A stretch of DNA of 56,979 bases from a virus. Taxonomy: Duplodnaviria > Caudoviricetes. Below the pieces are notes generated by a model. The model saw nothing but the letters and a program-made list of their open reading frames with translations, was not told the DNA's origin and did no database searches. The DNA lies in IMG/VR virus record IMGVR_UViG_3300042260_000461, positions 1-56,979 of that record. One strand, given 5' to 3'. Position numbers and translations under genes: made by a program. Of this stretch, positions 1 through 56,979 are shown piece after piece; position 1 is the first letter of the stretch; every line of letters starts with the position of its first letter.

Positions 1-41
1 GTGGGTCAAGTTGCTGCCAGTCAATGCCGAACAGCGGACGT

Positions 42-67
42 AAAAAAGCCCGCAGTGGTGCGGGCTT
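42..67 (-). terminator. Rho-independent terminator downstream of the guaA-like att core
   Basis: Minus strand AAGCCCGCA-CCAC-TGCGGGCTT followed by a T run; also present at 56771-56796. Confidence 0.8.
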
Positions 68-113
68 AGGGGTGTTTTGCGCCTTTCAGTGCCTGGCGCT
101 GCCAGACATTAAA

Positions 114-128
114 TCATTCCCATTCAAT
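114..128 (-). other. Putative attP core, mimic of the guaA 3' end
   Basis: Minus strand ATTGAATGGGAATGA = I-E-W-E-stop, the conserved GuaA C-terminus. It lies upstream of a P4-type integrase with AlpA, as in guaA-associated elements. Confidence 0.75.
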
Positions 129-335
129 TCTCAATAGCACCGCCAAGTGCTTGAATTGATTGGTTTTGTTGCAGTGCAACACAAGGCGATACCATGAATG
201 ATGCCATGCTCAGAAGTCCTCTACAAGACAAGGGCGTGCATCATTCGGACACGATCTGCACGAGATAACTAGATTCTATCAACCGGGAAGATCAATTAGG
301 TAGACGGGCGCGCAGTGCGCCCGCCCCCTACCCTA

Positions 336-3300
336 TCACTTCACCTTCTCGGCCAGGTCTCGCATGATCTTGGTCTTCTTCTGGACCTCGACCTGCACGG
401 CCTCCTGGAACTCATCTTGCGAGATCCGGTTGGTCTGACGCTGGCGCTTGAGTTGGGCGATGTTCTTCTCGACCTCAGCGATCTCGGCCTGAGCCTTGGC
501 GTTGAGGTTGCGGCGCAGAACGTCAGCCGGATAGCTGCCCAGCTTCACCCCGAAAGATGAGGCCACGGCCTGGGCCACTGACTGTTCGCGGCCAAAGGCA
601 TCGGTCTTGCCCTGCGCAGCCTCCGACACCCCCGTGGTGGCGTAGGTGCCCGGCAGGCCCAGCACGTTGGGCGCAAAAGCCTTGTACAGGTGATCGGCCA
701 CCTTCTCAGCCTTTTGCAGCGGCGTGTCGGTGTCCAGTGTGATCGGCTTGCCAGTGAATGCCGACTTATTGAACACCACCTCGCCAAACAGCACCAGCGG
801 ACCGCCAGGCATCATGCCGGGCAGGACCGGCACGGCAGCTTGGCCAGCACCCACGTCGAACACATCGCCCACGGGAATGAAGCGGCGGATGTCCAGATAA
901 ACCGGCGAGCCGTGCTGATCGTTCCAGGGCATGCGGATCAGCTTGGGCACCATGCCCCAGATCTTCCCGGCCTTTTCTTCGGGCAACAGCTTGCGCTCTT
1001 CATCGTCGCCATCGCCACCGGCCAGCATGCCGCCCAGGGCGTTGAGCGCACCGGCCAGCAGCATCAGCTTCATGAGCTTGTGCGGCTTCTTGCCCGCGAT
1101 CTCGGCCAGCATGGGCACAGCGCGGTAGGTGAAGCTGATGAACGGCCAGGCAGACTGGCGCATTGCCTGAATCCATGGCGCGTTGATGCTGTAGTCCAGG
1201 AATGAGCGGCGTGAGGCCTTGCCTGCATCGATGTCGGTTGCGCCCTCTTCCTTGGCCTTGAGCCAGGCAGCCAGGCGGAAAACATCGTCCTCGGCCTGGT
1301 ACAGGTCGATCAGGCTGTTGGCCTCGGTACCGATGGCCTTGCCGGGCTTGGAGCCCTTGAAGGCCTCCCAAGCGGTCGGGAAACGCAGCATCAAGGCGTT
1401 TTGCAGCGCCGACATCACGCCCACCTCGGCCTGGGCAGACTGCCCGCCCGTGGCGGCCAACTCCTGCTCCAGCTTGGCCAACAGGGGCTCCAGCTGGTCC
1501 TTGGCGATCTCGTTCGTCACCCAAGAGCCCACATCGCCGCCCGAGTCGGTGTAGCGGTTCAGGATCTCGCGGGCAGCCTCACGGTCGGCAATACCAGCCT
1601 TGGCCAACTTGTTGCCCAAACCGCCCAGCGCGCCCTGACCTTCGCGCTGGCTTGCTGCCAGGATCAGGCGCAGGGACTTGGCCACATGAGCCGCGCCCAC
1701 GTCATGCCAGTCGGCCATGACGAAGTTGGACATGACGTTGTTCATGTGCACGGCGGGCGACAGCGCGGTCTTGGCGGTTTTCCACATGCTCAGGATCTGG
1801 GCATAGGTGTCACCAAAAGGCTTGAACTGGCCATTGACCACCTGGCGCAGGTCATTCCAGACCGGGCCGGGCAGGTAGCGGCCAGCGAGCTTGCCGTACT
1901 TGGCCACGCTGGTGCCGCTGATCTTGGTGTCGGGCACACGCACCCACTCGCCAGGCTTGAAAGTGTCGCGGTAGCGCTCAGACGCTTCCACCACCTCGCC
2001 GGGGATGGTCTCGCCTTCTTTTAAGGCGTAGCCGTGCGCCATCCACTCCAGGTAGCGTCCCACCTCCACGTCATGGATCATGCCGTGCAGGGTCTTGGCA
2101 ATGGCAAAGCGGGCCTCATCGACTTCGCCCATGGTCTCGCGCTCGTCCTTGGTGAAGTCGCGCCAGAAAATGACGTTCTCGCCCTTCACATCCCGTACCT
2201 CGAACGTGCCCGCCTTGGACCATTCCGAGTATTGGCTCGGGATGGTTTCACCGGCTGGCCAGTAAGCCACCTCCAGCAACTTGCCCAAGGCCTTGCCTTC
2301 CATGCCTTCCAGCGGCTTGGTGCCCTCGCCCGATGCGGCGCGGCGCTCCAGGCGCACGAACTTCTCGCCCTTGAGTCCTGCATCGGCTTTGCCCTTGACC
2401 AGCTTGCGGCCCCACCACTCGGGTGCGGTGTTCTTGAGCTTGGCCATGGTGGCGGCCTCGGTCAGGCCACGGCCCTTGTACTGGTCGCCCAGGATGGAGA
2501 TCACCCGGGCGCGCTTGGCTTTTTCGCCTGCGGTCTGCTCCAGGATGTGCTTGGCGTAGCTGCGGCGCAGGTAGGCGTACTTGTTGGCCTCGTAAGCCTC
2601 GGGGCTCAGTTGGCCAAGTCGCACCGCCTCACGCGAGAGCTGATCGATCATCTTTTGCACGTCCTGCAATACCTTGACCGATTCCTCGGGCAGGCCTTGC
2701 ATCATGGACACGTAGGCCTTGGGGTCGGCACCGTCCATGTTCATCCACTCGTAGGCCACGCGAGACTCTTCGCGGGTCAGGGTGGAGAGCTTTTCGATCA
2801 ACTCACCGGCCTTGCGCAGTTGCACCCGCTGGCGACCTTGCAGCAGCACGCGCTGATCGATCACAGCCTGGGGCACGCCATAGTCGGCCACCACACCGGC
2901 CTTGATGGTCTCGGGGGTGTAGCGGTCCAGCAGGTAGCCCGCCCGGTCGTAGATTGCGCCGGTCAGGCGCTCGATGCCGGTGATGCGGGTCAAACCCTTG
3001 GCCAAGGCATCCAGCGGGGCGCGGCTGCCAGCCTTCTGGCTCAGGATCTCGTCTGCGCGCTCGCGGGCATCCTTGCGGCGCGAAAGCATCACGCCATCCT
3101 CTGCCGGGTTCTTCTCGCGCCACTTGGCGGCCAGGCGCTCAAACAGGGGGTAGTCCTTGGCCAGCATGTCCTCGACATCGGTAAAGCCTCGGGCGCGGGC
3201 CTCGGTTTGCAGCCACTTCTCCTGGCGCTCGATGTCATCCTTGAGCGTGGTGGACAGGCGGGTGTCGCCCATGTAACCCACCCGGCTCACCGGGCTCTTG

Positions 3301-6300
3301 CCAGCCACGTACTCGCGGGCACCGCGCACCAGTTCAGCGACGAACAGGTCGGCGCGCTGCTGCTGGGTCAAACTGCCCTCAAGCAGATCGCTCAGTTTGT
3401 TGGCCAAGTTCTTGTAGCCATGCGCCAGCAACCAATCGCGCACCATGACCGTGACCTTGCGCCAGCCCTTGAGCTTGGCCAGTTGGGCGGTCGGGATGTC
3501 CACGATGGCCTCTTCCACAGCCTCGGCGGTGGACATCTTGTTGCCGCGCTTTTGGATCTCGAAGGCCGCCCGGCGCACGTTAGCGTTGTTGGCAGACACC
3601 AGGGCCATGGCGGTCTTGAGGCTGTCACCCAGCAAGGCGCGCAGGCCAAAGTGGGCGGCCTCATGCTCAAGCAGCACGTGCTCGGCGCGGGCCATGTCAG
3701 ACAGGCCCGATGCGAACAGGTACAGCCCGCCCTCGTGAAATGCGCCTTCCACGTCATCCCAGGCATCCTGGCGAATGATGTACTCGCGCAAGCCCTTGGG
3801 AGCCTTACTGGGGTCAGACAGCACCGTCACCTTGGGCATGTTGGGCATCGTTGCCTTAACGCCGCGCACCATGGCGTCCAGGTCATCGACGCTCACACCG
3901 CCGGACGCAGCGCCAGCGCCGCGAGACAGTCGGGTGTCCTCTGCGGGCTTGACCTCTGACGCCTCAGTGGCCATCCAGTCCTCAGCAGCACCGCCATTGG
4001 TGGAAACTGCCTTGGTGATTGCCTCGTCGGCATTGGTGGCCTGAACATCAAAGCCCAGGCCAGAGGCCTTGTTTTCCACGCGCCAGGTCTTGGGCTTGGA
4101 ATCAGAGGCGATCATGTCCTCCAGGTCGTTGGCCTCTTTCACCTTGTCGGCCAGCATGCCAGCCATGGGGAAAGGCGACTCCAAGCGGCTGGTCAGTGCA
4201 TCGATCTGAGCTTTGGCCTCGGTGATGCGCTCGCGCATCTTGGCGGGCAGCCTGGCCACATCTGACACGGCGTTTTGCGCACGCATGGCCACGCCAATGG
4301 GGCTGGTACCGGCATCCGCGATCAGCAAGATCGGGTCGGGCGTGCCCAGCATCACCTTGGTCATGAACTGGCCTGCAACGGTCTCGCCGCCAAACACCAC
4401 TGGAAAACCGGAGATCTCGCCAATGGTCATGGGCTTGGTCTCGCCCCTGGCGGTCAGGTCCTTGTACTTGGCGATCAGGGCCTCGGCCCAGTCGGCGCGC
4501 TCGGCCAGGGTCTTGCCCATGACCTTGGCGCGGAACTTGTCGCCCGACAGGTCCTGCACCAGGGCGGCCATCTTCTCGGCCTCGGGCATGCGCTTTTGGT
4601 TGAACTCCACCGTTGTGCGCGCCATGTCGTACTGGGACTTGAAGCGGGCGCGCTGGTCCTCGTGGGCGCGGTAAAGGCGCTGGAGCTTTTCGATCTCGGC
4701 GCGAGCCCCTGCCAGTTGCAGGATGCGCGGATCTTCGGCCACCATGGCAGCGGCCAGGTCGTACTGGCTTTGGCTGTCCAGGTCCTCCAACTCGCGCAGG
4801 TTCGCGTCACCGCTCAAGGCCTGGTCGATGAAGAACTGTTTGGATGCGAGCATCTTCCACATGTTCTCGTCGTAGGTGCCCTTGGCGGCGTAGGCGTACA
4901 GCTGCACCAGCGGGTTCTTGTTGCCCTGGCGCACGATGCGGCCCTCACGCTGCTCCAGGTCAGCCGGGTACCAAGGCGAATCCAGGTGAAACAGGGCCTT
5001 GAGGCGCTGCTGTGCGTTCACGCCCGTGCCCATGTTCTTGCTGGAGCCCACCAGCAGGCGCACCCGGCCAGCGTTCACGTCCTTGAACAGCTTGAGCTTG
5101 TCCGCCGACTTCTTGTAGTCGGACATAAAAGCCACCTGATTCATGGGCATGCCAGCATCGCGCAGGCGTTTTTCAAACCAGGCGCGGGCATTGAAGCCGC
5201 GATTGGCGGCCACACCCTCACCAAAGCCAAGGTCAGAAAACACCATCGTGGCCGCGCCCTTGTTGGGCTCGACGTTGCCCGCCTTGTCGCGGTACTCCAT
5301 GTCCTTGGTCTCAGTCAGGACACGGATCACGTCATCGATCATGCGGTTGAGCTTGGAGTCCGGGTCGCTGGGCAGCGATGGATCGATGAAACGCATGTCG
5401 ATGGCAGCCAGGCGGCCATCGCCAATGATGCGGATCATCGGGTCCGGATTGTTCGGCTCGTCCTTGGTTGGCTTCCAGGCGCGGGACTTCTCCACACGGG
5501 CGGAGAGGTCGGACTGGTACCCGTCATAGGCCCCGGTCTTGGGCGTGACGATGATCTTGCGAGATCCGTTCTCCACTTTCGGGCGCTTGTCGCCCAGCAA
5601 AGCGGCCAGGGTGTCCGAAGTCAGCACGTCCGCGAACTCGCGGAACATCTGGGTCAACTCGGGCACGTTCACGAACTTGCTGAACCGGGTCACAGGCTCG
5701 TACTTGCCAGCGGCGTTGGGCTCCAAAACCGTGCGCTCGCGCCCGAACATCGAGGCCCATGAATCGAAGTCCTCGATGCCGCGATCTTCCAAGGCCTGGC
5801 GGTCCATGAACTTTTGCACCGTGTACAACTCGGCCAGGGTGTTGGTCACGGGCGTGCCCGATGCCAGCACCAGCGAGCGGCCTGGGTTCTTTTGCTCCAG
5901 GTAGCGGGACTTCATGTACAGGTCAAAGGCGCGGGCAGAGCCTTGCGGGCTGATGCCCTTGACCTGGCGCGAAGTCGTGAAATCGAGCTTGCGGAACTCG
6001 TGGGCCTCGTCCACGTAGAGCATGTCCACGCCAAGTTCATCGAATCGGACGTTGGTGTCCTTGCCGGTCGATGCCATGGCAGCTTCCAGCTTTTGCTCCA
6101 TGTTCTCGATCTGCTTTTCGATCTGCTTGATGCGCGGGGACTTCTTGCCGCCCTTGCCATCCTCGGCCTCGGCCTCTTCCAGGGCAGCGCGCATGTAGTC
6201 CAGCTGCTCCTCGATCATCTTGCTTTTGAACTCGGGGTCCAGATCCAGCAGCTTGAAAGCGCTGTGCGTGATGACCACGCCATCGAGGTCAGACAGCGCC

Positions 6301-9300
6301 ACACGCGAGACGAAGCGGCGGCGGTTGTCGGTGTGGAAGTTCTTTTCGTCGGCCACCATCAGGCGGGCAGCCGGGTAAAGCATCTGCCACTCGTGCGCAA
6401 ACTGCTTGAGCATGTGGTTGGGCACCACGATCATGGGCTTCTTGATGAGGCCCAGGCGCTTTTGCTCCATGGCCGAAATGACCATCTGGAAGGTCTTGCC
6501 CGAACCCACGGCATGCGCCAGGTAGGTGTTGCCGCGCTGGATGATGCGCCAGGCCCCGCGCTTGACGTGATCGAACACGCTGAACGCCTTGGACGTGCCC
6601 GGCAGCGTCAGGTGACGACCGTCAAAGGATCGCGGCACCGTGGTGTTGAAGGTGTCGTTGTAGATCCGCACCAGGCTATCGGTGCGCTCGGCATCCTTCC
6701 ACACCCAGTTGGCAAAGGCCTCGCGCAGTGCTTCGAGCTTCTGGTTGGCCGCTTCGGTACCGGCAGAGTCAAAGACCGTGGTCTTGTCTTTGCCGTAACC
6801 CTGGCTCTTGGTGATGCGGATGGGCCTGCCGGTCAAGGCATGCTCCATGATGTCCGTCACGTTGCGATCAGCCGTGCCCCAGTCGGCGGTGGCCTGCATG
6901 GTCTTGCCGCCGCTGACCTCCTGAACGGACCATTGCTTGGTGCGCTCATTCCAGGACACCTGGGCGCGCACACCGGCCAACTCGCGCAGGAATTGGCTGT
7001 ACACAGCGCCGGGCACCCAGTTCATGCCGATGCCCACATTGATCTGGCTTGGGGTCTTAGGCGCGGGCTGGGCAGCTTCGAGCGCCGCCACATTGCGCTC
7101 AAAGCGCTTGTCGGTCTTGGCAGCCGTGCGGGCTTCATCCAGTTTGCGCTTGACGTTGCCGCTCAAGTACTCGTCGGCAGTCACCCAACTGACAGCGGGG
7201 TCCTCATAGATGGCGGAGCCCAGGGCCTCGATGGTCTCGGCCTCGGTCAATCCCACGCGCTGGGCGATCAGAGGGATGTCCACATGCCCCACATCGTTGA
7301 GCGATGACAGCATTGCATCGACTGGGGTGTTGACGCTGGCAGCATCGGGCTTGCCCAGCACGCGCTCAGTTAGGAAAGCACTGGGCTTAATCTCGCCCGT
7401 GTCCTCGTTGATGGTCTCCAGAGCCGCGACCAGGGTGTAATCCGGGTCATCCTCCAGCTTGCGCAGCAGGGTGTAGACGCGCACCTGGGTTTCATCGGTG
7501 TAGGTCTCGCCCGTGTCCTCATCGACCACTTTGGACTTGACGGACTTGAGCGTGAATTGGTTGATCTGGCCGTGCTTTTTGGTGAAGTCGGCATAGGCCT
7601 TTTGCAGCGCCTTGATGCTGGTTTCCCAATCGCCCTCGTTCAACTGGTCGTAGTGCGCCTGCTTGAGGGCATCGCGCAGCGGCACAAAGTCCTTGATGAG
7701 TTGCACATCGGCTTGCGAGCGCAACTCCACGCGCTGGCCCACCCCACCCTCACGCACCATCAGCGCGCCGGAGTCGCTGACGTAGTAGTTGCCTTCTTTC
7801 TTGGCCTTGGGGTTGAAGTCGATCTCGCGGACCTTGGCCGCTTCGGCAGAAGATCCACGCTCGGCGGTGTAGATGCCCTCGGGCAGGCGGTTGATCGCCT
7901 TGTCGAACAGGGCCTCGATGTCGCCATCGAGCGGCGCGACCGTGTACTCGCGGTCCTTGTACATGGAGCCCGCATCGGAATGCGTGCCCAGCACCATGTC
8001 CGGGTTGGCCACAAAGTACTCGTTGATGTTGTAGTCGTTGCCGTTGACCTTGAGCGGCACCGACTTGCCCCAGGACTGAGCGCCCTCGAAGGTCTCACCT
8101 GGCACTTTTTTGCGCAGGAAGATCACATCTGTGACCACCTCGGTACCGGCGTTTTGCTTGAAGGCGGTTTGAGGCAGGCGAATTGCGCCCACCAGGTCCG
8201 CACGGTCAGCCAGGTACTGGCGCGCCTTGTCATCGAGCTTGTCCATGGTGTAGCGGCTGGTGACGTACACCACCAGACCGCCCGGCTTGGTGCGATCAAT
8301 CGACTTGGCAAAGAAGTAGTCATGCAGGCTGAATGCCCGCTTTGCGTACTCTGGATCGCTCAGGATCTTGGTGCCAGAGAACGGCGGATTGCCGACCGAC
8401 ACGTCATAGAAGTTCTTGGGCAGCTTGGAGTCCACGAAGGACTCGACCAGGATGCGCTCGTCGGGGAACAGCTGCTTGAGGATGCGGCCCGTGAAGGAGT
8501 CGAACTCGATGCCGGTGTAGATCGAGTTTGCGGCCATGGCGGCGGGCATGAGGCCTGGGAACACGCCGATGCCAGCGCCTGGCTCCAGAATGGCCCCGCC
8601 CTTGAAGCCCATGCGGTCCAGTGCGCGCCACATCGAGCGCACCACTTCCTTGCTGGTGTAGTGGGCGTACTGGGTCGAGCGCGAGGCCTCGGCCCATTCC
8701 TTCTCGGACATGGACGCCTTGAGGCGGTTGCGCAACTCCACCCACTTGCGCACGCTGGGCTCGGGCTTGGCCTTATCCAGCATCTCGCGGGTGATGTTGC
8801 CCGCCGTGTACCAGGTCAACTGCGGGTTGCGGTATTGCAGGACCCGGAAGGCAGGCGCGTACTCGCCGTAGCGGGCGTTGGTCAGGAACGGGCGATCACC
8901 CAGGGCGGCGATGGCCTCGTCGTAGTTGCTCAGCGCCTCGGCGGCCTTGTCCAGCTTGTCGCCAAACAGGTTGTTGGCGATCTCGGAAGCGCCCCAGCCA
9001 ATGAACTTGGCCAGCTTCGCCTGCTCTTCGCGGGTGGCCTGGCGGCCATCCTTCTCCAGCGACAGCAGCAGTTCAATGGCTTCGAGGTTCTGCTCGGCCT
9101 TCTTGAACCAACTGCCCTCATAGCTCAGGTCGGAGGCTGAGAAGGCGTAGTTTCGTCCGGACTTTGCGGGGATGTCGCGTCCTGCGGGAACTCCAGCATT
9201 TCGGCCAGCACGATCTCGCGGTTGAGGCTGCTTGCTGTTCGCATCCTGGCCGCGCACTCCATCGGCCCCAGCTTGTCCCACCCCTCCTTGATCCGCTGCG

Positions 9301-12300
9301 TTTGCGTCAGCGTCACCACCTGCGAAGAGATCTGATCCGCCAGGTCTTGGGCGTACTCGTTGAGTTGGCCGCTTGCCGCCAGGCTGCGATACAGCGCGGG
9401 TGCCTTCTCCTTGATCGCGTCCTTGACCAGCGTTATCGTTTGCATCTTGATCTCCAGTTTTCTCGCCAGTATATCCATTTCCGGATATTTGTGGTACAGT
9501 TGTGTCGAGAGGTGTTGAAATGAATGTTCCAGACAGATTCCCACCAGGCTGCGAGTTCGGCATGGACTTGACCGACGACGATGGCGTGGAGTTGGTGTAT
9601 GTCGAATTCCCCGATGGCAAGCGCTTTGTGCTCAACGAAAAGTCGCCTTGGGATGGCATGTCGCCAACCACCTGGTGGCCCTTGCGTTGGTCGAGATTGA
9701 CTGAGGCTGGTTTCTTGGAAGCAGCAGGCAAGCCAGCAGAAGTGGTCGCAGCAGCACGTGCAGCCGCTGCGGAGGCGGCCAGCGGATAAATTTCACGCTG
9801 CGCCGCAATGGCGTTAGCTTGCGTTTCAGAGCCTTCGGGCTCTGCTCTCTCGATCTCATAGAGCTTATGCCCCTCGGCGTTCTTGACCGCCAGCATTTCG
9901 GGCACATTGATTTGGATCTCGGCAGTCGTGCCATTGGCGGTGCGAACATTGACCAGCACCTGGCCATAGCCAGAGTCCAAGAACCCAGCCTTGCCACTGA
10001 CTTCTGTCGCCTTGATCCCGGCGTCTGACTGATCCTTGATGCGCTTGGGCAGGATCTCAAACTCTTTTCTGATTGCATCGACCACGGCCTGAGCATCGGC
10101 GTAGCTGCTCACCACAATGGTCGAGCGCAGCATGTCGTACATCTTGCCGGGGTCGAAGTTAACGCCCTCATCCGTCACCAGCTTTTCAACAGAGCGAGCA
10201 AGCCCCTTTACTGGTGCAAGCATCTGGCCAAGTGCGCCGGTGCTCTTGGCGATGTCGATGATCTTCTGGTCGTACTCGGCCTTGGCTTCATTGGCGCGCT
10301 CAATGAGCGGCTTGAGCAGCTTCTCGGCCTTCTCACGATCCTGCGCGCTGATCTCGACAGGTGCGGCTGATTTGAGCAGGCGGCCAATTTGGTCGCGTGC
10401 GTTCGCCAGGACATCAGCGGGGATGAAGGTGTCGGTTTCAGGCGGGGCGAAGTTGTCCAGCTTCATGTCGTACGGGCGGCCATCGATCATGGCGGCCTTG
10501 GGCTTGTCTGCCAGGTCGGCCAGCGCATCCCCGAACAGATCTTGCTGACCCATACGGGCCTCGGCAGCTGCGAACAAATCATCGACACGCTGGGCCGACT
10601 CGCGGGCCATGGCCTGCTCGGCAGCCTTGCGGTACAAGTCGGTGGCAATCTTGTTCCAGAAGGTCTTGAGCTTCGGATCGTTCTTGAGCGCCTGCTTCAC
10701 GTAGGCCACCAGATCCTTGAGGCTGTAACCCACTTCCTTGATACCGGCCTCCATCAGGCGGATCAACGTGGGCATGAGGTCCGGTGTCTTTTCCGGGACC
10801 ATCATCAAGCGCGTGTGCTTGGTGGCGATCATGGCCAGGTCAGCCATGGCGTCCTTGAAGTCTTGACGGGCTTGGGCACGCGCCTGGTCGGTTGCAGCGC
10901 CATCGGAGCGCTTGACGCTCGGAAACTGGAACGTGGCGGCCATCAAGTCACGGATGGGCGCGTCAAACTCGATCACCTTGACCGGCTCATTCATAGCCAG
11001 GGCAGCCACCCACTGGTGATGACCGTCCAGCACATAGCCATCGGCGGATGCCAGCACAGAGCGGTCTACGCCATCGCGCACTTGTTTCCAGCGCTCGGCC
11101 TTCTTGCTCGAAAACTCGGCCTGGGTCGGCTTGAGGTCAGCGGCTGGGCGCTCGACCGTCTTGTGCTCGATGCCCTTGCCTTGCAGGAATTGGATCAGCG
11201 CGCCGCGATGCTCGCTTTTGACCTGGGGCATTTCGGCACGGGGAATGCCGATGGTGCCGGTGTCGGGCGGGAACATCACCCATTCGCTTTGCTCTCCTGC
11301 TTGGGTTGCGGCAGTGGCGCGGGCAGCCCCATCGCCTTGATCGCCGCCGCGATTGCTCGGCGCATCTTGGGATTGCTGTCCACCTGGCGCATCAGCTTGC
11401 GCACCTTCTCCAGGGTCTCGCCGCTGGGTGTCTTGGGCAGTGTTGCCATTGTCATTTCCTCGTGCAGATTTCAGAAGGTCGGCGCGTGCCGGTGCGGTGT
11501 CGGTGTCGCCAAAGATCAAGCCTTGGCTGGGGTCTCCAGCAGCTTCCAGGGCCTCGTAGTAGCGCTGCACGAACTCGGCAATGCGGCGCGGGCTGCGGAT
11601 GTTGTCGGCCAACAGGGTCAAAAGCTGGGAAGCCTCGGGCGAGTACTTCGCGCCCGTGAGGTCGCCTTGGCCAAGTTCGTCGGCCACGCTCCAGCCCTTT
11701 TCCTTGAGGGCGGACAGGCCTTCAACGGCGGCCAGAAGATCCGGCGCAATGTCGGCCTCGTACAAGGTACCGGCCTGCATGCGCTCACGTGATGCTGCAA
11801 TGGTCGGGGCCACACGCACCAGTGCCTTGGTGACGTTGCGCAGGTTGTCATCCATGCTCTCGGTCATGCGGCGCAGCGTGGGCGAGTCACCGTAGGCCTT
11901 GGCCAGCACGGCGTTTTGGATGCGCCGGTAGCCGAACGTGGACAGGCGGCCATCGGACTCCACCATGTCCGACTGCTCAGTGATCGGCAGCATGGCCATG
12001 AACTGGCGGATGAAGTCGTAGGACGTGGTGAAGTCACCGGCATCGTCAGGGCTCAAGCCTTCCAGGGATGCCAGGCGCTTGGAGTCAGACACGGCCTGCT
12101 CGCTGGGGCTCATGCGCTGCACGGTCGAGGCGTTGGCCTGGCGTGCGAACTCGGCGCGGTTCACCGGGGTCTGGCGCAGGCGCACTAGCACCGGCTTGGC
12201 CAAGCCATCCACAGCCTCGGGCGTGAGGCCGAATTGACCGGCGTTCTCGCGCAGCCAGGCCTTGTAGTCCTCGGCCTTCTGACCATTGGCCTGATACACG

Positions 12301-13904
12301 CGCTTGAGGGCGATGGTGCGGGCGTTGCCCGACTCCACCAGGCCATCAGCGCCAACAATCGGCGCGCCCGTGGCGGCGTCAGCCGACAAGCCCAAGCGGG
12401 CCGGGTCGAGCTTTTGCACGATGCTGGAGACCTGCAACTCGCTGGCCGAACGGCTGCGGTCGCGGGGCTGCAATTCCTGGGGGTACAGGCTGTTGGGGCG
12501 CAGGCTCTCGTCGTGCGATGTCACCAGGTCGGCGGCATCCATCAGGGCGTACTGGCCATTGAGCCTGACGCCTGCCTCGGTCGAAAAGCTGGTGGATGCG
12601 CCCGGCTGGGCCTTTGGCCAAGACTGGGCGATGCTGGCGCGCTCGCTGGCCAACTCCTGGGCCTTGGTCGCCAGTTCGGCGCGCTCCTGGTCAAAGGCGG
12701 GGCCGTAGCCGTTCTCGGCGGTCAATTCCTGTGTGCGCTCGGCAATGCGTGAGATCTCGGTATCGATCTCGCCCACACGGTCCAGGGCAGTGAGCGATAC
12801 CGGCGTGCGCAGGGCTTTCTCGGCCTCGGTAGGCTGCGTCACAGCCATATTGGGCGCAGTGGCCGATTGCGGTGTGACAGGTGCTTGGCTCTGTGCTGGC
12901 GCTGGCTGGGGGGCGTTTCCGGATTCAGGTGTGATGGGCTTTTGTTCCCCAGCCTGGCCGATGGCGTTGCGGGCAGCCGAATACGTGTTCATGCCGCCGC
13001 CCATACCGGCACCGGCCACCATGCCCTGGGCGGCAGCCTCTGGCACGCCCTCGTCCCATGGCTTGCCCAATGCCAGGTTGGTGAAAACCTGCTCCTGGGC
13101 AGACTGCGGCAGTTCCTCCAGCACACCCTCTTTGAATGTGCCCTTGGCGATCTCTTTGCCAGCCTGCACAAGGCTCTGGCGCTGTGCGCCGCCCATGCCT
13201 GCAACGGCTGCGCCGACTTCAGCATCACGGAAGCCGGGAATCTTGGATGTGACCAGGCTGATGGCAGCCGTGCCCAAGCCGCCAGCAACGGCGGCAGGAG
13301 CGGTGTCGGTGTAGTCTCGGCCAGCTTGGCGGCCTGCCTCCTGAATACTGCCTGCGGTCATCGCGCCTTCGGTGGCTGCGCCGATGCCGGTCAACTTGGC
13401 AATGGTTGCAGGCTTGGCCAAGAAGGCGGCAGCCTCAGCGGTACCGGCCTTGATACCGGCAGAGGCCAGCATCTTCGAGGCGGCGGCGCGCACTGCGGCG
13501 GCACCGCCCAACATCATCGGCGTGGATTCAACGATGGAGCCAACGGCAGCGCTGGGGTTTTGCACCAGGGCCTTGGTCGTGTCCACGAAGCCTTTGGCCT
13601 GCGAAACCTCACGATTGGCCTGCTGGCGCGGGTCGCTGTAAAAGTCGCTCAGGATCTGCTTGGTTTGCTCAGGGTCGTAGCCCATAGCCCCCAAGCCCTT
13701 GCCCACCAGGTTGCCGGTGGCCAGATCTGCCAGGCCTACGGCAGACTCACCAAACCCAACAACGCCCTTGGCCAGGTCGATGCCTGAGTCGGCAATAGCC
13801 TCGCCCCAAGTGCGATCGCGCTGATCTGGTTTTTTCTTCGACTGCTCTTGGTCCGGAACAAACCGACCACTAGACTCAGAATTTTCGTCCGGTACAAATG
13901 CCAT
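336..13904 (-). CDS. Giant DarB-like polyvalent (probably virion-injected) protein: DdrB/ParB-like, second ParB-like, RelA/SpoT-like synthetase, N6-adenine methyltransferase, SNF2 helicase, zincin metallopeptidase and C-terminal LPD-like domains
   Basis: 4522 aa. Motifs: VESGNARTIAL; LKPTQ..DGHHQW; K..RSVEK/DMLRSTI/GY/EIQI/HKLYE; ILEPGAGIG and NPPF; AHAVGSGKT, DEAH, QREGRIVRQG; HEAAH. Last gene of the late arm, after the ejection genes. Confidence 0.9.
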   Translation of the reverse strand: MAFVPDENSESSGRFVPDQEQSKKKPDQRDRTWGEAIADSGIDLAKGVVGFGESAVGLADLATGNLVGKGLGAMGYDPEQTKQILSDFYSDPRQQANREVSQAKGFVDTTKALVQNPSAAVGSIVESTPMMLGGAAAVRAAASKMLASAGIKAGTAEAAAFLAKPATIAKLTGIGAATEGAMTAGSIQEAGRQAGRDYTDTAPAAVAGGLGTAAISLVTSKIPGFRDAEVGAAVAGMGGAQRQSLVQAGKEIAKGTFKEGVLEELPQSAQEQVFTNLALGKPWDEGVPEAAAQGMVAGAGMGGGMNTYSAARNAIGQAGEQKPITPESGNAPQPAPAQSQAPVTPQSATAPNMAVTQPTEAEKALRTPVSLTALDRVGEIDTEISRIAERTQELTAENGYGPAFDQERAELATKAQELASERASIAQSWPKAQPGASTSFSTEAGVRLNGQYALMDAADLVTSHDESLRPNSLYPQELQPRDRSRSASELQVSSIVQKLDPARLGLSADAATGAPIVGADGLVESGNARTIALKRVYQANGQKAEDYKAWLRENAGQFGLTPEAVDGLAKPVLVRLRQTPVNRAEFARQANASTVQRMSPSEQAVSDSKRLASLEGLSPDDAGDFTTSYDFIRQFMAMLPITEQSDMVESDGRLSTFGYRRIQNAVLAKAYGDSPTLRRMTESMDDNLRNVTKALVRVAPTIAASRERMQAGTLYEADIAPDLLAAVEGLSALKEKGWSVADELGQGDLTGAKYSPEASQLLTLLADNIRSPRRIAEFVQRYYEALEAAGDPSQGLIFGDTDTAPARADLLKSARGNDNGNTAQDTQRRDPGEGAQADAPGGQQSQDAPSNRGGDQGDGAARATAATQAGEQSEWVMFPPDTGTIGIPRAEMPQVKSEHRGALIQFLQGKGIEHKTVERPAADLKPTQAEFSSKKAERWKQVRDGVDRSVLASADGYVLDGHHQWVAALAMNEPVKVIEFDAPIRDLMAATFQFPSVKRSDGAATDQARAQARQDFKDAMADLAMIATKHTRLMMVPEKTPDLMPTLIRLMEAGIKEVGYSLKDLVAYVKQALKNDPKLKTFWNKIATDLYRKAAEQAMARESAQRVDDLFAAAEARMGQQDLFGDALADLADKPKAAMIDGRPYDMKLDNFAPPETDTFIPADVLANARDQIGRLLKSAAPVEISAQDREKAEKLLKPLIERANEAKAEYDQKIIDIAKSTGALGQMLAPVKGLARSVEKLVTDEGVNFDPGKMYDMLRSTIVVSSYADAQAVVDAIRKEFEILPKRIKDQSDAGIKATEVSGKAGFLDSGYGQVLVNVRTANGTTAEIQINVPEMLAVKNAEGHKLYEIERAEPEGSETQANAIAAQREIYPLAASAAAARAAATTSAGLPAASKKPASVNLDQRKGHQVVGDMPSQGDFSLSTKRLPSGNSTYTNSTPSSSVKSMPNSQPGGNLSGTFISTPLDTTVPQISGNGYTGEKTGDQDANDNAGQGRDQGEGTRAVSQPGGKRPTQRVRPRPGGSDLFAGGDADANAADQGGVGQAGADGVRGQDANSKQPQPRDRAGRNAGVPAGRDIPAKSGRNYAFSASDLSYEGSWFKKAEQNLEAIELLLSLEKDGRQATREEQAKLAKFIGWGASEIANNLFGDKLDKAAEALSNYDEAIAALGDRPFLTNARYGEYAPAFRVLQYRNPQLTWYTAGNITREMLDKAKPEPSVRKWVELRNRLKASMSEKEWAEASRSTQYAHYTSKEVVRSMWRALDRMGFKGGAILEPGAGIGVFPGLMPAAMAANSIYTGIEFDSFTGRILKQLFPDERILVESFVDSKLPKNFYDVSVGNPPFSGTKILSDPEYAKRAFSLHDYFFAKSIDRTKPGGLVVYVTSRYTMDKLDDKARQYLADRADLVGAIRLPQTAFKQNAGTEVVTDVIFLRKKVPGETFEGAQSWGKSVPLKVNGNDYNINEYFVANPDMVLGTHSDAGSMYKDREYTVAPLDGDIEALFDKAINRLPEGIYTAERGSSAEAAKVREIDFNPKAKKEGNYYVSDSGALMVREGGVGQRVELRSQADVQLIKDFVPLRDALKQAHYDQLNEGDWETSIKALQKAYADFTKKHGQINQFTLKSVKSKVVDEDTGETYTDETQVRVYTLLRKLEDDPDYTLVAALETINEDTGEIKPSAFLTERVLGKPDAASVNTPVDAMLSSLNDVGHVDIPLIAQRVGLTEAETIEALGSAIYEDPAVSWVTADEYLSGNVKRKLDEARTAAKTDKRFERNVAALEAAQPAPKTPSQINVGIGMNWVPGAVYSQFLRELAGVRAQVSWNERTKQWSVQEVSGGKTMQATADWGTADRNVTDIMEHALTGRPIRITKSQGYGKDKTTVFDSAGTEAANQKLEALREAFANWVWKDAERTDSLVRIYNDTFNTTVPRSFDGRHLTLPGTSKAFSVFDHVKRGAWRIIQRGNTYLAHAVGSGKTFQMVISAMEQKRLGLIKKPMIVVPNHMLKQFAHEWQMLYPAARLMVADEKNFHTDNRRRFVSRVALSDLDGVVITHSAFKLLDLDPEFKSKMIEEQLDYMRAALEEAEAEDGKGGKKSPRIKQIEKQIENMEQKLEAAMASTGKDTNVRFDELGVDMLYVDEAHEFRKLDFTTSRQVKGISPQGSARAFDLYMKSRYLEQKNPGRSLVLASGTPVTNTLAELYTVQKFMDRQALEDRGIEDFDSWASMFGRERTVLEPNAAGKYEPVTRFSKFVNVPELTQMFREFADVLTSDTLAALLGDKRPKVENGSRKIIVTPKTGAYDGYQSDLSARVEKSRAWKPTKDEPNNPDPMIRIIGDGRLAAIDMRFIDPSLPSDPDSKLNRMIDDVIRVLTETKDMEYRDKAGNVEPNKGAATMVFSDLGFGEGVAANRGFNARAWFEKRLRDAGMPMNQVAFMSDYKKSADKLKLFKDVNAGRVRLLVGSSKNMGTGVNAQQRLKALFHLDSPWYPADLEQREGRIVRQGNKNPLVQLYAYAAKGTYDENMWKMLASKQFFIDQALSGDANLRELEDLDSQSQYDLAAAMVAEDPRILQLAGARAEIEKLQRLYRAHEDQRARFKSQYDMARTTVEFNQKRMPEAEKMAALVQDLSGDKFRAKVMGKTLAERADWAEALIAKYKDLTARGETKPMTIGEISGFPVVFGGETVAGQFMTKVMLGTPDPILLIADAGTSPIGVAMRAQNAVSDVARLPAKMRERITEAKAQIDALTSRLESPFPMAGMLADKVKEANDLEDMIASDSKPKTWRVENKASGLGFDVQATNADEAITKAVSTNGGAAEDWMATEASEVKPAEDTRLSRGAGAASGGVSVDDLDAMVRGVKATMPNMPKVTVLSDPSKAPKGLREYIIRQDAWDDVEGAFHEGGLYLFASGLSDMARAEHVLLEHEAAHFGLRALLGDSLKTAMALVSANNANVRRAAFEIQKRGNKMSTAEAVEEAIVDIPTAQLAKLKGWRKVTVMVRDWLLAHGYKNLANKLSDLLEGSLTQQQRADLFVAELVRGAREYVAGKSPVSRVGYMGDTRLSTTLKDDIERQEKWLQTEARARGFTDVEDMLAKDYPLFERLAAKWREKNPAEDGVMLSRRKDARERADEILSQKAGSRAPLDALAKGLTRITGIERLTGAIYDRAGYLLDRYTPETIKAGVVADYGVPQAVIDQRVLLQGRQRVQLRKAGELIEKLSTLTREESRVAYEWMNMDGADPKAYVSMMQGLPEESVKVLQDVQKMIDQLSREAVRLGQLSPEAYEANKYAYLRRSYAKHILEQTAGEKAKRARVISILGDQYKGRGLTEAATMAKLKNTAPEWWGRKLVKGKADAGLKGEKFVRLERRAASGEGTKPLEGMEGKALGKLLEVAYWPAGETIPSQYSEWSKAGTFEVRDVKGENVIFWRDFTKDERETMGEVDEARFAIAKTLHGMIHDVEVGRYLEWMAHGYALKEGETIPGEVVEASERYRDTFKPGEWVRVPDTKISGTSVAKYGKLAGRYLPGPVWNDLRQVVNGQFKPFGDTYAQILSMWKTAKTALSPAVHMNNVMSNFVMADWHDVGAAHVAKSLRLILAASQREGQGALGGLGNKLAKAGIADREAAREILNRYTDSGGDVGSWVTNEIAKDQLEPLLAKLEQELAATGGQSAQAEVGVMSALQNALMLRFPTAWEAFKGSKPGKAIGTEANSLIDLYQAEDDVFRLAAWLKAKEEGATDIDAGKASRRSFLDYSINAPWIQAMRQSAWPFISFTYRAVPMLAEIAGKKPHKLMKLMLLAGALNALGGMLAGGDGDDEERKLLPEEKAGKIWGMVPKLIRMPWNDQHGSPVYLDIRRFIPVGDVFDVGAGQAAVPVLPGMMPGGPLVLFGEVVFNKSAFTGKPITLDTDTPLQKAEKVADHLYKAFAPNVLGLPGTYATTGVSEAAQGKTDAFGREQSVAQAVASSFGVKLGSYPADVLRRNLNAKAQAEIAEVEKNIAQLKRQRQTNRISQDEFQEAVQVEVQKKTKIMRDLAEKVK
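9125..9445 (-). CDS. Nested +1-frame gene, TnpV-like helical protein (106 aa)
   Basis: GGAGA RBS 5 nt before ATG. KEKAPALYRSLAASGQLNEY..KEG..MECAARM..REIVLAEML resembles the TnpV family. The host frame here is low-complexity linker. Confidence 0.7.
   Translation of the reverse strand: MQTITLVKDAIKEKAPALYRSLAASGQLNEYAQDLADQISSQVVTLTQTQRIKEGWDKLGPMECAARMRTASSLNREIVLAEMLEFPQDATSPQSPDETTPSQPPT
9471..9488. promoter_or_regulatory. 18-bp operator inside the giant gene, within a divergent promoter
   Basis: ATATCC-ATTTCC-GGATAT, a perfect match to the motif at the cI/cro and early promoters. It overlaps a minus-strand -10 TATACT (9468-9473); a plus-strand extended -10 TGgTACAGT lies at 9492-9500. 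Confidence 0.75.
9520..9789 (+). CDS. Nested antisense gene (89 aa), candidate antitoxin of the embedded RelA/SpoT-like domain
   Basis: GAGAGG RBS and its own extended -10. Globular-looking aromatic/acidic sequence (MNVPDRFPPGCEFGMDLTDDDGVELVYVEFPDGKRFV...). Ends tail-to-tail with the synthetase domain. Confidence 0.65.
   Translation: MNVPDRFPPGCEFGMDLTDDDGVELVYVEFPDGKRFVLNEKSPWDGMSPTTWWPLRWSRLTEAGFLEAAGKPAEVVAAARAAAAEAASG
11276..11449 (-). CDS. Nested +1-frame gene (57 aa), basic helical protein
   Basis: GAGGA RBS 8 nt before ATG. MATLPKTPSGETLEKVRKLMRQVDSNPKMRRAIAAAIKAMGLPAPLPQPKQESKANG*. Below the ORF-track cutoff; the host frame is low-complexity. Confidence 0.6.
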   Translation of the reverse strand: MATLPKTPSGETLEKVRKLMRQVDSNPKMRRAIAAAIKAMGLPAPLPQPKQESKANG

Positions 13905-42500: not shown

Positions 42501-42776
42501 TTACTCACTGAGGGCGGCGGTTGCCGCTCCACGGGCACGTCGAGCCTTGAGCCCGCTGCGTGTGTTGGGGATGCGCAGTGCTGACGCCCGCTTGTCGTGC
42601 TTCTCGAACCAGTCGAGCAGCGGTTGAACGGTGTCCAGGCGTGGCGAACACAGTCCGGCATGGATGCGGCTCACGGTCGCTTGGGGGACCCCGCTCTCCT
42701 TAGCGATACGGTTGTGCTGGCCAGCGAGTTCGGACAGTCGCCTGCGCAGGTAGGTGTAGATCGGTTCTTTCTTCAT
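42501..42776 (-). CDS. Cro-like HTH regulator
   Basis: IAKESGVPQATVSRI..PRLDTVQPL; divergent from the repressor. Confidence 0.8.
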   Translation of the reverse strand: MKKEPIYTYLRRRLSELAGQHNRIAKESGVPQATVSRIHAGLCSPRLDTVQPLLDWFEKHDKRASALRIPNTRSGLKARRARGAATAALSE

Positions 42777-42788
42777 GGCCTGCCTAGT

Positions 42789-42842
42789 GTATCCGTATCC
42801 GGATATTTAATCAACCACATCCGGATATCCATTTATGGAATC
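42789..42842. promoter_or_regulatory. cI/cro operator region (three imperfect 18-bp operators)
   Basis: GTATCCGTATCCGGATAT (42789), TCAACCACATCCGGATAT (42811), ATATCCATTTATGGAATC (42825). Confidence 0.7.
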
Positions 42843-42851
42843 ATTGACACC

Positions 42852-43331
42852 ATGGAATCTTTACGCCACCGACTCGCCCGCCTGATGCGGGAATACATGG
42901 ACACAACCATGGTGGACACCCAAACCAAGGTGTCGGCCAAGGCGGGTGTGTCGCAATCCACAGTTCAGCGTCTGCTGTCGCAAGACCAGTCCGCGACCGT
43001 GGACGTTCTGGAGTCCCTGGCCAAGGCGTTTGGCGTTAAAAGTGCGCATTACTTGCTGCTTGAGCGTGATGAGGCAAAACTTCTTTCACTTTGGGGAACT
43101 CTGAGCAACGAGGACCGGCAGACCGTTTTGGGCTTTATTCAAATGAAAGCCCAAACAAAAACCGTGCAAGATCTGGCAGCGCAACTCACCTTCGATTCCG
43201 GCAAGCCGGTGTCGCCTGAGTTGCGCGCTGCATCGAAACGGGCATCGGTACGTAAGCCGGGGTCTGACGCTCTGAGCAACCCAACAGATGACAAGGCACG
43301 ATCAACATCACGCGCAAGGCGCAAGGCTTGA
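42852..43331 (+). CDS. CI-like XRE repressor without S24 peptidase domain
   Basis: TQTKVSAKAGVSQSTVQRLL..TVDVLESLAKAFGV. Confidence 0.85.
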   Translation: MESLRHRLARLMREYMDTTMVDTQTKVSAKAGVSQSTVQRLLSQDQSATVDVLESLAKAFGVKSAHYLLLERDEAKLLSLWGTLSNEDRQTVLGFIQMKAQTKTVQDLAAQLTFDSGKPVSPELRAASKRASVRKPGSDALSNPTDDKARSTSRARRKA

Positions 43332-43666: not shown

Positions 43667-43735
43667 ATATCCGTTGACGAATATCCGGATATGGATATAT
43701 GATCGGGGCGTCAGGAAATTTTTAAGGAGTCAGGA
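43667..43735 (+). promoter_or_regulatory. Operator-controlled early promoter
   Basis: TTGACG-18-TATGAT with operator ATATCCGGATATGGATAT (43681-43698); leader GTCAGGAA..AAGGAGTCAGGAA. Confidence 0.75.
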
Positions 43736-43999
43736 ATGAGAAACAGAGTCGCCATTGAAGCCCGCATGCTCCAGATCGACAACGCGATCAGGGGCTATCA
43801 GAACAACATCGCCGCTTGGAATCTTCGGATGAATGAATTTGGCGAGCAGTGGCAAAACATGATCGCCTGGGCGCAGCAGCAAGTGAACAGAGCGCAGGCC
43901 GAGCGTGGAATGCTGGAATGTGACCTTGATGAGGTTGCCTTTGCTGAAAGCCTCACCCAACAAGGCGGGACAGCGCTGTTCATCAGCAATCGCATTTGA
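43736..43999 (+). CDS. Hypothetical coiled-coil early protein
   Basis: 87 aa, strong RBS. Confidence 0.7.
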   Translation: MRNRVAIEARMLQIDNAIRGYQNNIAAWNLRMNEFGEQWQNMIAWAQQQVNRAQAERGMLECDLDEVAFAESLTQQGGTALFISNRI

Positions 44000-44033
44000 C
44001 TTGCCCATAAATAACCGCATCCGGATATTTACC

Positions 44034-48362: not shown

Positions 48363-48429
48363 TTGCATTGATATCCGTATGCGGATATGATTGAGCCGTA
48401 GTCAGGAACTTTTATAGGAGTCAGGAACC
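48363..48429 (+). promoter_or_regulatory. Second operator-controlled early promoter
   Basis: TTGCAT-17-TATGAT with palindrome ATATCCGTATGCGGATAT (48371-48388); leader nearly identical to the one at 43709-43736. Confidence 0.75.
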
Positions 48430-48699
48430 ATGAACCAAGCCCAAATCGAAGCACTGGCCAACGCCAATGCCTTCCTCAACAACGCAGGCCTGCCGCTCAT
48501 TCAAGAGCGGATCGTGCAAGTCCAAGTCAGGAACGTGTACGGCAAAGCCACCGTTTACCCCGCCAACGAAACCGCCGAGTTCTTCGCGGCCATCGCCGGA
48601 ACCAAAACCCTCGCGCCAGTTGTCCTGGCCTACGCCAGACGGTTGGGCTTCGACATCAAGCAAGTCGAGGCCTACCAACTGGATGAGGTGGCCGCATGA
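48430..48699 (+). CDS. Hypothetical phage protein
   Basis: VRNVYGKATVYPANETA..IAGTKTL. Confidence 0.7.
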   Translation: MNQAQIEALANANAFLNNAGLPLIQERIVQVQVRNVYGKATVYPANETAEFFAAIAGTKTLAPVVLAYARRLGFDIKQVEAYQLDEVAA

Positions 48700-48929
48700 C
48701 CCTCATTCAACGTCAAACCCGCATCGTGCGCGCACTGGAGAACGTGTACCGCCGCAAGTGGCAAAACCCTGGGCAGCGGTCCAGGGCCGTGCGCCTGCTG
48801 GCCGAGTTCAACGCCAAGCGCATGGCCTTCGCGGGCTACACCGCTGACGATGCCCGCGCCAGCTTCAAGCAGTGCATGGACATGGCCATGCTCAACATCA
48901 ACTCAGGGCCTTTGTTCGCCCAGCAATAA
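48696..48929 (+). CDS. Hypothetical protein
   Basis: 77 aa, GAGG RBS. Confidence 0.65.
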   Translation: MTLIQRQTRIVRALENVYRRKWQNPGQRSRAVRLLAEFNAKRMAFAGYTADDARASFKQCMDMAMLNINSGPLFAQQ

Positions 48930-48960
48930 CCGCATCCGGATTTTTTGAAAGGAAACCAAC

Positions 48961-51515: not shown

Positions 51516-51547
51516 CCAATCTCTCCACCACCCTAAAGGAAGTCTCC

Positions 51548-51868
51548 ATGAACCAAGAAAACACCCAGTCGCCCGAGTCCGCAGAACCAGCGGAAAAGAA
51601 GCGCCCAAACATCGCACTCACCCCGGTTGAATCCAACCAGGTCAAGGCCATTGGATACGACGAGGCCACCAAGACGCTGGCCGTGACGTTCACCCGTGGC
51701 GCTGGCGCGATCTATCACTACCCCGATGTGAGCAAAGAAACATTCGAGGCCTTCATCGGTGCCGAATCCATCGGCAAGTTCTTTGGCCAACACATCAAGC
51801 CCCTGGCGTTTGAGAAGTTCGCGCCCGAGCCCGTCATCGAAGCCGAACAGACCGAAGAAGCGGCGTAA
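51548..51868 (+). CDS. KTSC domain protein
   Basis: VESNQVKAIGYD..L.V.F..YHY.DV..AESIGKFF. Confidence 0.85.
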   Translation: MNQENTQSPESAEPAEKKRPNIALTPVESNQVKAIGYDEATKTLAVTFTRGAGAIYHYPDVSKETFEAFIGAESIGKFFGQHIKPLAFEKFAPEPVIEAEQTEEAA

Positions 51869-55087: not shown

Positions 55088-55127
55088 GGCATCGGCTTGT
55101 CATCAAATACCCGCATCCGGATAAACA

Positions 55128-55352
55128 ATGACCAGACTCATCAACCGCAAAACTCTGCTCGGAATGATTCCGCTGTCCGAGCGGGCGATCTACGACATGG
55201 AGCAGCGCGGCGACTTCCCGCGCCGCATTGCTCTGACCAGTCGCAACGTGGCGTGGCAGTTGGACGAAGTGGAGGCCTGGATTCAGCAGCGCAAGCTGTC
55301 TGGCGTCCAGGCCATGCGCCCAGGCATCACGCCGCAGGCTGTGGCCGCTTGA
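55128..55352 (+). CDS. AlpA-family excisionase / recombination directionality factor
   Basis: LSERAIYDMEQRGDFPRRIAL..VAW..EVEAW; operator-like site at 55107-55124. Confidence 0.9.
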   Translation: MTRLINRKTLLGMIPLSERAIYDMEQRGDFPRRIALTSRNVAWQLDEVEAWIQQRKLSGVQAMRPGITPQAVAA

Positions 55353-56729: not shown

Positions 56730-56979
56730 GTGGGTCAAGTTGCTGCCAGTCAATGCCGAACAGCGGACGTAAAAAAGCCCGCAGTGGTGCGGGCTTAGGG
56801 GTGTTTTGCGCCTTTCAGTGCCTGGCGCTGCCAGACATTAAATCATTCCCACTCAATTCTCAATAGCACCGCCAAGTGCTTGAATTGATTGGTTTTGTTG
56901 CAGTGCAACACAAGGCGATACCATGAATGATGCCATGCTCAGAAGTCCTCTACAAGACAAGGGCGTGCATCATTCGGAC
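56730..56979. repeat. Terminal direct repeat, right copy
   Basis: Matches 1-250; the att core here reads ATTGAGTGGGAATGA on the minus strand. Confidence 0.95.

Follow-up and report, generated by a model that had tools for sequence, protein, structure and literature searches.

The 56,979-nt viral record IMGVR_UViG_3300042260_000461 (Duplodnaviria; Caudoviricetes), analysed here over its whole length and called the window, carries a cassette of two small divergent genes inside a giant DarB-like virion-protein gene (336–13904, minus strand): a TnpV-like gene (9125–9445, minus strand) and an antisense gene, orfB (9520–9789, plus strand). The 74-bp gap between them (9446–9519) holds an 18-bp palindrome, ATATCC-ATTTCC-GGATAT (9471–9488), and sequence comparison strongly supports this site as a genuine member of the operator set of the phage. 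From its position between two outward-facing promoters, one repressor dimer bound there would probably shut both of them. The underlying observation, i.e. the operator, its geometry and its low chance rate, was confirmed.

Operator sites in the window

The gap is bounded by CAT (9443–9445), the start codon of the minus-strand open reading frame (ORF), and by the ATG at 9520, and it contains both −10 boxes, the operator and two Shine–Dalgarno sequences. Its GC content is 0.432, compared with 0.62 in the neighbouring ORF and 0.612 in the window, and the palindrome matches the operator consensus at 12 of 12 specified bases; thus the AT-richer gap with a perfect operator match described in the initial annotation is borne out. 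That annotation had also proposed a scan for the chance rate of the site. The perfect form ATATCC-N6-GGATAT occurs three times in the window (9471, 43681 and 48371), whereas 100 dinucleotide shuffles averaged 0.00 matches, with none in any shuffle. With up to two mismatches allowed, nine sites were observed against 0.30 expected, seven of them at 42.7–55.2 kb, one at 9471 and one, with two mismatches, at 6662, which is probably due to chance. The hexamer GGATAT alone was found 16 times against an expectation of 6.0.

The remaining two perfect sites both overlie early promoters. Two overlapping operators (43667–43698) cover the early promoter TTGACG-18-TATGAT (43674–43703), and the perfect operator at 48371–48388 covers a second one, TTGCAT-17-TATGAT (48363–48391; TTGCAT 48363–48368, TATGAT 48386–48391), which was read by eye. 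A further operator-like site, GTATCCGTATCCGGATAT (42789–42806), lies between two genes for helix-turn-helix (HTH) proteins.

The same leader, GTCAGGAA...AGGAGTCAGGAA (43710–43761 and 48401–48452; 73% identical over 52 nt), stands after each of the two early promoters, hence the promoter–operator–leader module is duplicated, and in a relative of the phage (G002) a similar leader is found downstream of operator sites. Separately, a repeat, ATAACCGCATCCGGATATTT, occurs at 44003–44030, 48918–48945 and 55099–55126, and also at 42781–42808. It stands 3–22 nt upstream of start codons in the early region, is kept in another relative (G001), and has the right half-site of the operators with no obvious promoter geometry.

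The divergent promoter pair

The leftward −10 box, TATACT (9468–9473, minus strand), precedes the TnpV-like gene with a predicted start at ∼9461, and the rightward extended −10 box, TGgTACAGT (9491–9499, plus strand), precedes orfB with a predicted start at ∼9506. The former matches TATAAT at five of six positions, the latter at four of six plus the TG. Each is followed by a Shine–Dalgarno sequence, CTCC at 9452–9455 (GGAG on the minus strand) and GAGAGG at 9507–9512, respectively.

On the minus strand, TATACT (9473 to 9468) has its first three bases in common with the half-site GGATAT, such that the overlap reads GGA-TATACT (9476–9468). The same three bases are shared at the second early promoter, where TATGAT (48386–48391) overlaps GGATAT (48383–48388) as GGA-TATGAT, and the main early promoter of G001, at 17402 in that genome (GGATATACT), shows this operator/−10 overlap as well. 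The likeness in geometry to the site at 48383, which was pointed out in the initial annotation, therefore stands.

For comparison between phages, 17 cassette-bearing loci were aligned, anchored on the rightward −10 box and including the near-duplicates L036/window, L045/L004 and L046/L043. The gap consensus is AgTaTA..c.tt..c......tT.tG.TAcA.T, in which the leftward box appears as AgTaTA on the plus strand and the rightward one as tG.TAcA.T. These two boxes, always 25 nt apart, are the best-conserved columns of the gap, and the Shine–Dalgarno sequences are kept too, whereas the intervening 18 bp are variable. The extended −10 box beside the operator, another element of the initial annotation, is thus present at a fixed offset in all 17 loci.

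Covariation of the operator with regulators and early sites

The window phage (G000) was compared with seven whole relatives (G001–G007), and ten further records were searched. Sites were counted as ATAWCC-N6-GGWTAT with at most one mismatch in cassette-bearing records with a completeness of 89% or more, leaving out G017. Six records have the palindrome in the slot between the −10 boxes, namely G000, G001, G002, G003, G009 and G011, and they hold 7, 7, 4, 6, 4 and 4 sites, respectively, the cassette site included. All six also encode a homologue of the phage's 159-residue HTH protein. The six records with no palindrome in the slot (G004, G005, G006, G007, G014 and G015) hold 0, 1, 0, 0, 0 and 1 sites, and none of them has a homologue. 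Shuffles of G000–G007 gave 0.00–0.17 sites per genome. While the 159-residue protein was sought in all 12 records, a second HTH protein of 91 residues was sought in G001–G007 and in the G009 and G017 loci flanking the gene for the 159-residue protein, and there it was found wherever the 159-residue protein was. Three less complete records without the palindrome (G012, G013 and G016) lack a homologue and have 0, 0 and 1 sites, respectively. For G004–G007, the cassette spacer of each was used as the query against its own genome, and no site with three or fewer mismatches to it was found elsewhere there. In the operator-bearing phages, the additional sites are grouped next to the HTH genes and on promoter-like sequences that have a leader of the window type.

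The slot sequence itself differs between lineages. It is ATATCC-N6-GGATAT in L034 and L036, ATATTC-N6-GGATAT in L061, ATATCC-N6-GGATAA in G001, ATAACC-N6-GGTTTT in G002, ATATCC-N6-GGTTTT in G003 and G009/G011, and ATATCC-N6-GGTTAT in L042 and L065, and the palindrome is lacking in G004–G007, G012–G016 and others. The right half-site is GGATAT or GGATAA where the early sites are GGATAT (G000 and G001), and GGTTTT or GGTTAT where the early sites are GGTTWT (G002, G003 and G009/G011). In L034, whose TnpV-like protein is only 77% identical to that of the window, a 32-nt core, CAGTATATCC...GGTACA, is unchanged and its flanks differ.

About half of the related phages have the same promoter pair without the operator, therefore the switch would be a lineage-specific add-on and not intrinsic to the cassette. 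Taken together, the alignments indicate that the promoter pair is ancient, and that the operator is lineage-specific and under lineage-specific selection. Across the phages, this makes a natural series for the capture of a pre-existing promoter by a regulator, with states of no operator, a type A operator and a type B operator.

One record, G017 (L060), has the regulators and type A sites together with a variant cassette, in which a small co-directional ORF stands before the nested TnpV-like gene (75% identical), and both a divergent orfB and the AT-rich gap are absent.

Candidate regulators

Two divergent HTH genes of the immunity region are candidates for reading the site, one for the 91-residue regulator (42501–42776, minus strand; phrog_9425, ‘transcriptional repressor’) and one for the 159-residue regulator (42852–43331, plus strand; Pfam HTH_3). 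The helix of the 91-residue protein ends in SRIH in the type A phages G000, G001 and G017, and in SRIY or SRIF in the type B phages G002, G003 and G009 (six sequences in all). This makes the 91-residue protein a candidate operator reader, which we offer as a lead. The initial annotation had named the product of 42852–43331 as the repressor. Its nature as an HTH_3 regulator of the immunity region holds, and its role at the operator is uncertain, as the recognition helix QSTVQR is identical in G000 (type A) and G009 (type B). CI and Cro of lambdoid phages share their sites, and by analogy the 91- and 159-residue proteins may do so as well.

Proposed repression of both promoters and alternative explanations

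In the mechanism that we propose, the 74-bp gap would be a compact bidirectional promoter, whose −10 boxes face outward and are each followed by a Shine–Dalgarno sequence and a small gene. The cassette is overprinted on a low-complexity linker of the DarB-like giant gene with the giant frame still read through, and in this lineage the phage's own HTH regulator or regulators would have acquired an operator in the 18 bp between the −10 boxes. The operator is centred on 9479.5, which is about −18.5 relative to the predicted leftward start and about −26.5 relative to the rightward one, and the placing at −18.5 is identical at the 48371 early promoter (centre 48379.5, start ∼48398). On the leftward promoter a bound dimer would span about −27 to −10, and on the rightward one about −35 to −18. 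Since the operator centre is inside the RNA polymerase footprint of both promoters, a single dimer should block both. The cassette is then expected to be silent in the lysogen and to be switched on with the early genes upon infection or induction, despite its location in a late gene. From the position of the site we infer binding, repression of both promoters and this timing.

Several points weigh against this explanation. There is no recognisable −35 box at 16–18 nt from either −10 box of the cassette, and a two-hexamer sigma-70 scanner called no promoter over 8000–11000, because neither promoter has a good −35 box; the same scanner does call TTGACG-18-TATGAT at 43674–43703. The ATAT of the left half-site is also found in operator-less relatives, so that the −10 box itself accounts for part of this half-site. 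In the covariation, G000 and G001 have a common immunity region and G009 and G011 are near-identical, hence only about four operator-bearing lineages are independent. Two fragments, G008 (50% complete) and G010 (39%), have the palindrome with no regulator and no other site in the part that they cover, and these we consider uninformative. Finally, the edges of RNA-library contigs at 9474 and 9487 do not fit starts at ∼9461 and ∼9506, although such contigs show no ends or strand.

The RNA data bear on a different possibility, already contained in the initial annotation, that the operator silences only the leftward promoter of the TnpV-like gene, and that the promoter of orfB escapes and stays on in the lysogen, as in a prophage moron, an autonomous promoter-plus-gene unit in a late region. 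In two RNA libraries of different studies, the only real pieces from a 1.8-kb stretch fall on the cassette, X15 with 9323–9474 and 9487–9734 and X16 with 9526–9773, and a third library gave 8687–8904. Thus orfB is covered in both cassette-matching libraries; moreover, the overlap of operator and −10 box copies the early-promoter design on the leftward side only, and a rightward promoter of the extended −10 type may not need −35 contacts. However, the contigs are 1–3 reads deep, strandless and of no stated physiological state, and late mRNA of the giant gene also crosses the region. The operator would also reach from about −35 to −18 at the rightward promoter, i.e. inside the polymerase footprint as predicted. 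We therefore regard expression of orfB in the lysogen as unlikely. From the initial proposal of a miniature switch inside a late gene, we keep the membership of the site in the operator set, the divergent promoter and the nested genes, and we set aside the silencing of the TnpV-like gene alone.

It is less probable still that the palindrome is a real binding site with another job, such as a transcription roadblock, looping with the immunity region or a patch of homology for recombination. The operator-like sites are scattered across a 13-kb part of the early region, and G000 and G001 are collinear at 94.7% identity up to 9542 and divergent over 9543–10042, where the orfB allele is swapped, hence the conserved gap borders a mosaic joint. 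On the other hand, the site sits between the −10 boxes in exact register every time and at no other place in the giant gene; a roadblock would not need this, since it requires no promoter geometry. On the circle, >20 kb separate the site from its nearest neighbour. Lastly, a palindrome that arose by chance or hitch-hiking, as a neutral by-product of an AT-rich gap with a TATA-type box, is highly improbable: the −10 box does supply the ATAT of the left half-site in many relatives, but a perfect 12/12 match is expected 0.00 times per genome, and the right half-site is found in all operator-type lineages and in no others, changing with the sites of each lineage.

Beyond the proposed repression of both promoters, a wider scenario can be drawn, in which the cassette is an immunity-gated early module on the linker of an injected giant protein, its single operator evolved in place from the promoter spacer and was re-tuned with each change of immunity, the orfB transcript extends as antisense RNA into the giant late gene over its 5′ third, and the regulator times an anti-restriction virion protein by way of three layers of coding (linker codons, an operator and two promoters) within the same 18 bp. 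In this full form we hold the scenario to be unlikely. If operator repression of the cassette is true, the immunity regulon of the phage would reach into a late structural gene and control genes that are invisible to standard annotation. The operator would also be regulatory evidence, independent of coding signals, that overprinted genes function, one of them antisense.

Coding evidence for the nested genes

The TnpV-like gene encodes 106 amino acids in the +1 frame of the giant gene. Its product scores 31.1 bits against PF14198 (TnpV), for which the gathering cut-off is 27, and its GC content by codon position is 0.61/0.47/0.79. A collection of 5.8 billion proteins holds 32 homologues, mostly of exactly 106 amino acids, 5 of which carry a precomputed PF14198 assignment. 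AlphaFold predicts four helices with a predicted local distance difference test (pLDDT) of 80.9. In closer pairs, differences in the TnpV frame are most frequent at the third position of that frame, which corresponds to the first position of the giant frame (0.22/0.30/0.38 between the window and L003; 0.39/0.39/0.60 between L006 and L007), and in the most divergent pairs the pattern is flat or reversed (e.g. 0.51/0.46/0.48 between the window and L008). By this measure, the TnpV frame is better conserved than the giant frame over the stretch that they share.

The orfB gene encodes 89 amino acids antisense to the giant gene, with coinciding third codon positions. It has 10 homologues, and 23 columns are invariant among 13 sequences; between close pairs, 45–49% of third positions differ as against 8–21% of first and second positions. 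Its AlphaFold model reaches a pLDDT of 91.9 and a predicted template modelling score (pTM) of 0.83.

Both nested genes lie inside an open giant frame in all seven IMG/VR relatives first found. Among metagenome loci, 22 of 25 were examined (L040 and L057 are the L003 and L005 contigs and were dropped, as was L053, a partial match); in 14 of the 22 the giant frame runs through, and the other 8 carry free-standing TnpV-like genes. In a second viral scan, 12 of 15 loci were examined, L063, L066 and L070 being records already included, and the giant frame has no stop codon in any of the 12. In a recoding test, the TnpV-like protein was kept and its codons were redrawn from giant-gene usage in 1000 trials per sequence. 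The giant frame stayed open in only 4–10% of these trials (P = 0.04–0.10 each), whereas the real sequences are open in eight of eight cases, therefore the openness is kept by selection. Over orfB, the antisense frame is open by composition alone (P 0.31–1.0), and thus this part carries no signal of selection for openness. Taken together, the Pfam score, the homologues, the codon-position pattern, the AlphaFold models and the recurrence inside an open giant frame argue strongly that both genes are real and truly nested, in agreement with the initial annotation.

For the function of the two proteins, PADLOC and ESM Atlas gave nothing and PHROGs gave one weak match (E 0.0085); orfB had no Pfam, PHROG, PADLOC or PDB-fold match, and Foldseek against the PDB gave best E-values of 0.18 and 3.4 for the nested proteins. 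No match to either protein was found by tblastn in 50,697 phage records, and no relative was found by a scan of genome contigs. In passages of PMC3158075, TnpV is postulated, from a likeness to lambda Xis, to assist in excision. A role of the TnpV-like protein as an excision factor is speculation that extends this postulated likeness.

Comparison with known systems

In the OR and OL regions of lambdoid phages, an inverted repeat over the core of early promoters is read by CI and Cro. The present sites resemble these in being inverted repeats of ∼17–18 bp over early promoters, with divergent HTH genes and sites between or beside them. The cassette copy differs in that it is single, >20 kb from the immunity region, within a translated late gene, and would serve two outward-facing promoters at once. 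In phage P1, which also has a giant injected protein of the DarB type, one repressor, C1, controls many scattered transcription units. The dispersed layout of the sites and the DarB-type giant protein of the phage are common to both systems; P1 operators are asymmetric and stand between genes, whereas the site described here is a palindrome within coding sequence. As with morons, the cassette would be an autonomous unit in a late region, and free-standing TnpV-like homologues exist elsewhere, as in the 8 metagenome loci; unlike morons, it lies inside a frame that stays open and not between genes, and is apparently wired off in the lysogen.

The TnpV gene of Tn4451/Tn4453 is matched here by a leftward gene above the PF14198 cut-off. 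It is described in passages of PMC3158075 as a Firmicutes transposon gene, whereas here its relative is found in a phage with a tyrosine integrase. For Lessieviruses, passages of PMC9144972 and PMC10269572 cite Rz1 embedded in Rz, the spanin genes. As in Rz/Rz1, a complete gene lies in another frame of a longer gene of the same phage; here, two genes are embedded, one of them antisense, and these have promoters of their own as well as an operator, and the host region is a low-complexity linker. The passages seen of the JC1 and CSP3 papers mention only predicted antisense terminators in the DarB-like gene, and Rz/Rz1 as embedded genes. No description of genes or operators inside a DarB-like gene was found among the papers listed in searches of the Bcep22/Lessievirus, phage overlapping-gene and nested-gene literature.

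The phage and its giant gene

Bases 1–250 and 56730–56979 of the window are a terminal repeat, so that the window represents a complete phage genome of ∼56.7 kb. A tyrosine integrase gene lies at 55327–56535, and the rightward early region encodes RecT, YqaJ and SSB. One relative is assigned to the provirus class, and isolate runs contain 80–85% of the sampled words of the stretch; together with the integrase, this indicates that the phage is temperate. In a blastn search of 50,697 phage records, DNA matches were found only in eight records of Bcep22-type phages of Burkholderia.

The giant gene encodes 4522 amino acids, with ddrB-ParB, Eco57I-methylase and SNF2-helicase domains, and its frame is open through the cassette. 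The protein is 43% identical over 1809 columns to the DarB-like gp70 of Burkholderia phage BcepIL02. The cassette is carried by residues 1371–1596 (9117–9794), a linker of low complexity in the giant frame (G/D/A/R/S/T/P), and homology to gp70 is clear again from residue ∼1597 (base 9116). Third-position GC content of the giant frame is 0.77–0.94 in windows over 7000–9099 and collapses from ∼9100 to 9850. No convincing direct or inverted repeats, as would be the scar of a mobile element, were found to flank 9117–9794, and an Rfam scan of 8800–10200 gave no RNA family.

In BcepIL02, the equivalent linker of gp70 holds an unannotated ORF of 107 amino acids in the +1 frame (L001 9168–9491, minus strand, equal to FJ937737.2 ∼51295–51618, plus strand); the record annotates only the giant coding sequence. 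This ORF was recovered by a codon-position GC scan (0.64/0.44/0.87) and by hhalign against the TnpV-like family (probability 94%, E 1.4e-7), having been missed by tblastn. Upstream of it are TTGCGT-16-TACAAT and GGAGG, without an orfB partner. The palindrome ATTGCGtCGCAAT before this gene was considered as an operator; it is unique in the genome, and the assignment is therefore unsupported. As the BcepIL02 group is discussed for phage therapy, hidden genes matter for its safety review.

At the mosaic joint between G000 and G001, the alignment of 1–9542 gives way to an unalignable segment and resumes from 10043 at 88.8% identity. The two orfB alleles show 37% identity in amino acid sequence, and the linker of the giant protein changes along with them. 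A second nested candidate of 59 amino acids (11276–11455, minus strand) falls within a different low-complexity linker of the giant gene, in the +1 frame, and has a GC content by codon position of 0.60/0.50/0.80. By tblastn, it was found in five of the seven whole relatives, at 97% identity in G001, 53% in G003, 54% in G007, 52% in G005, and 54% over 24 residues in G002.

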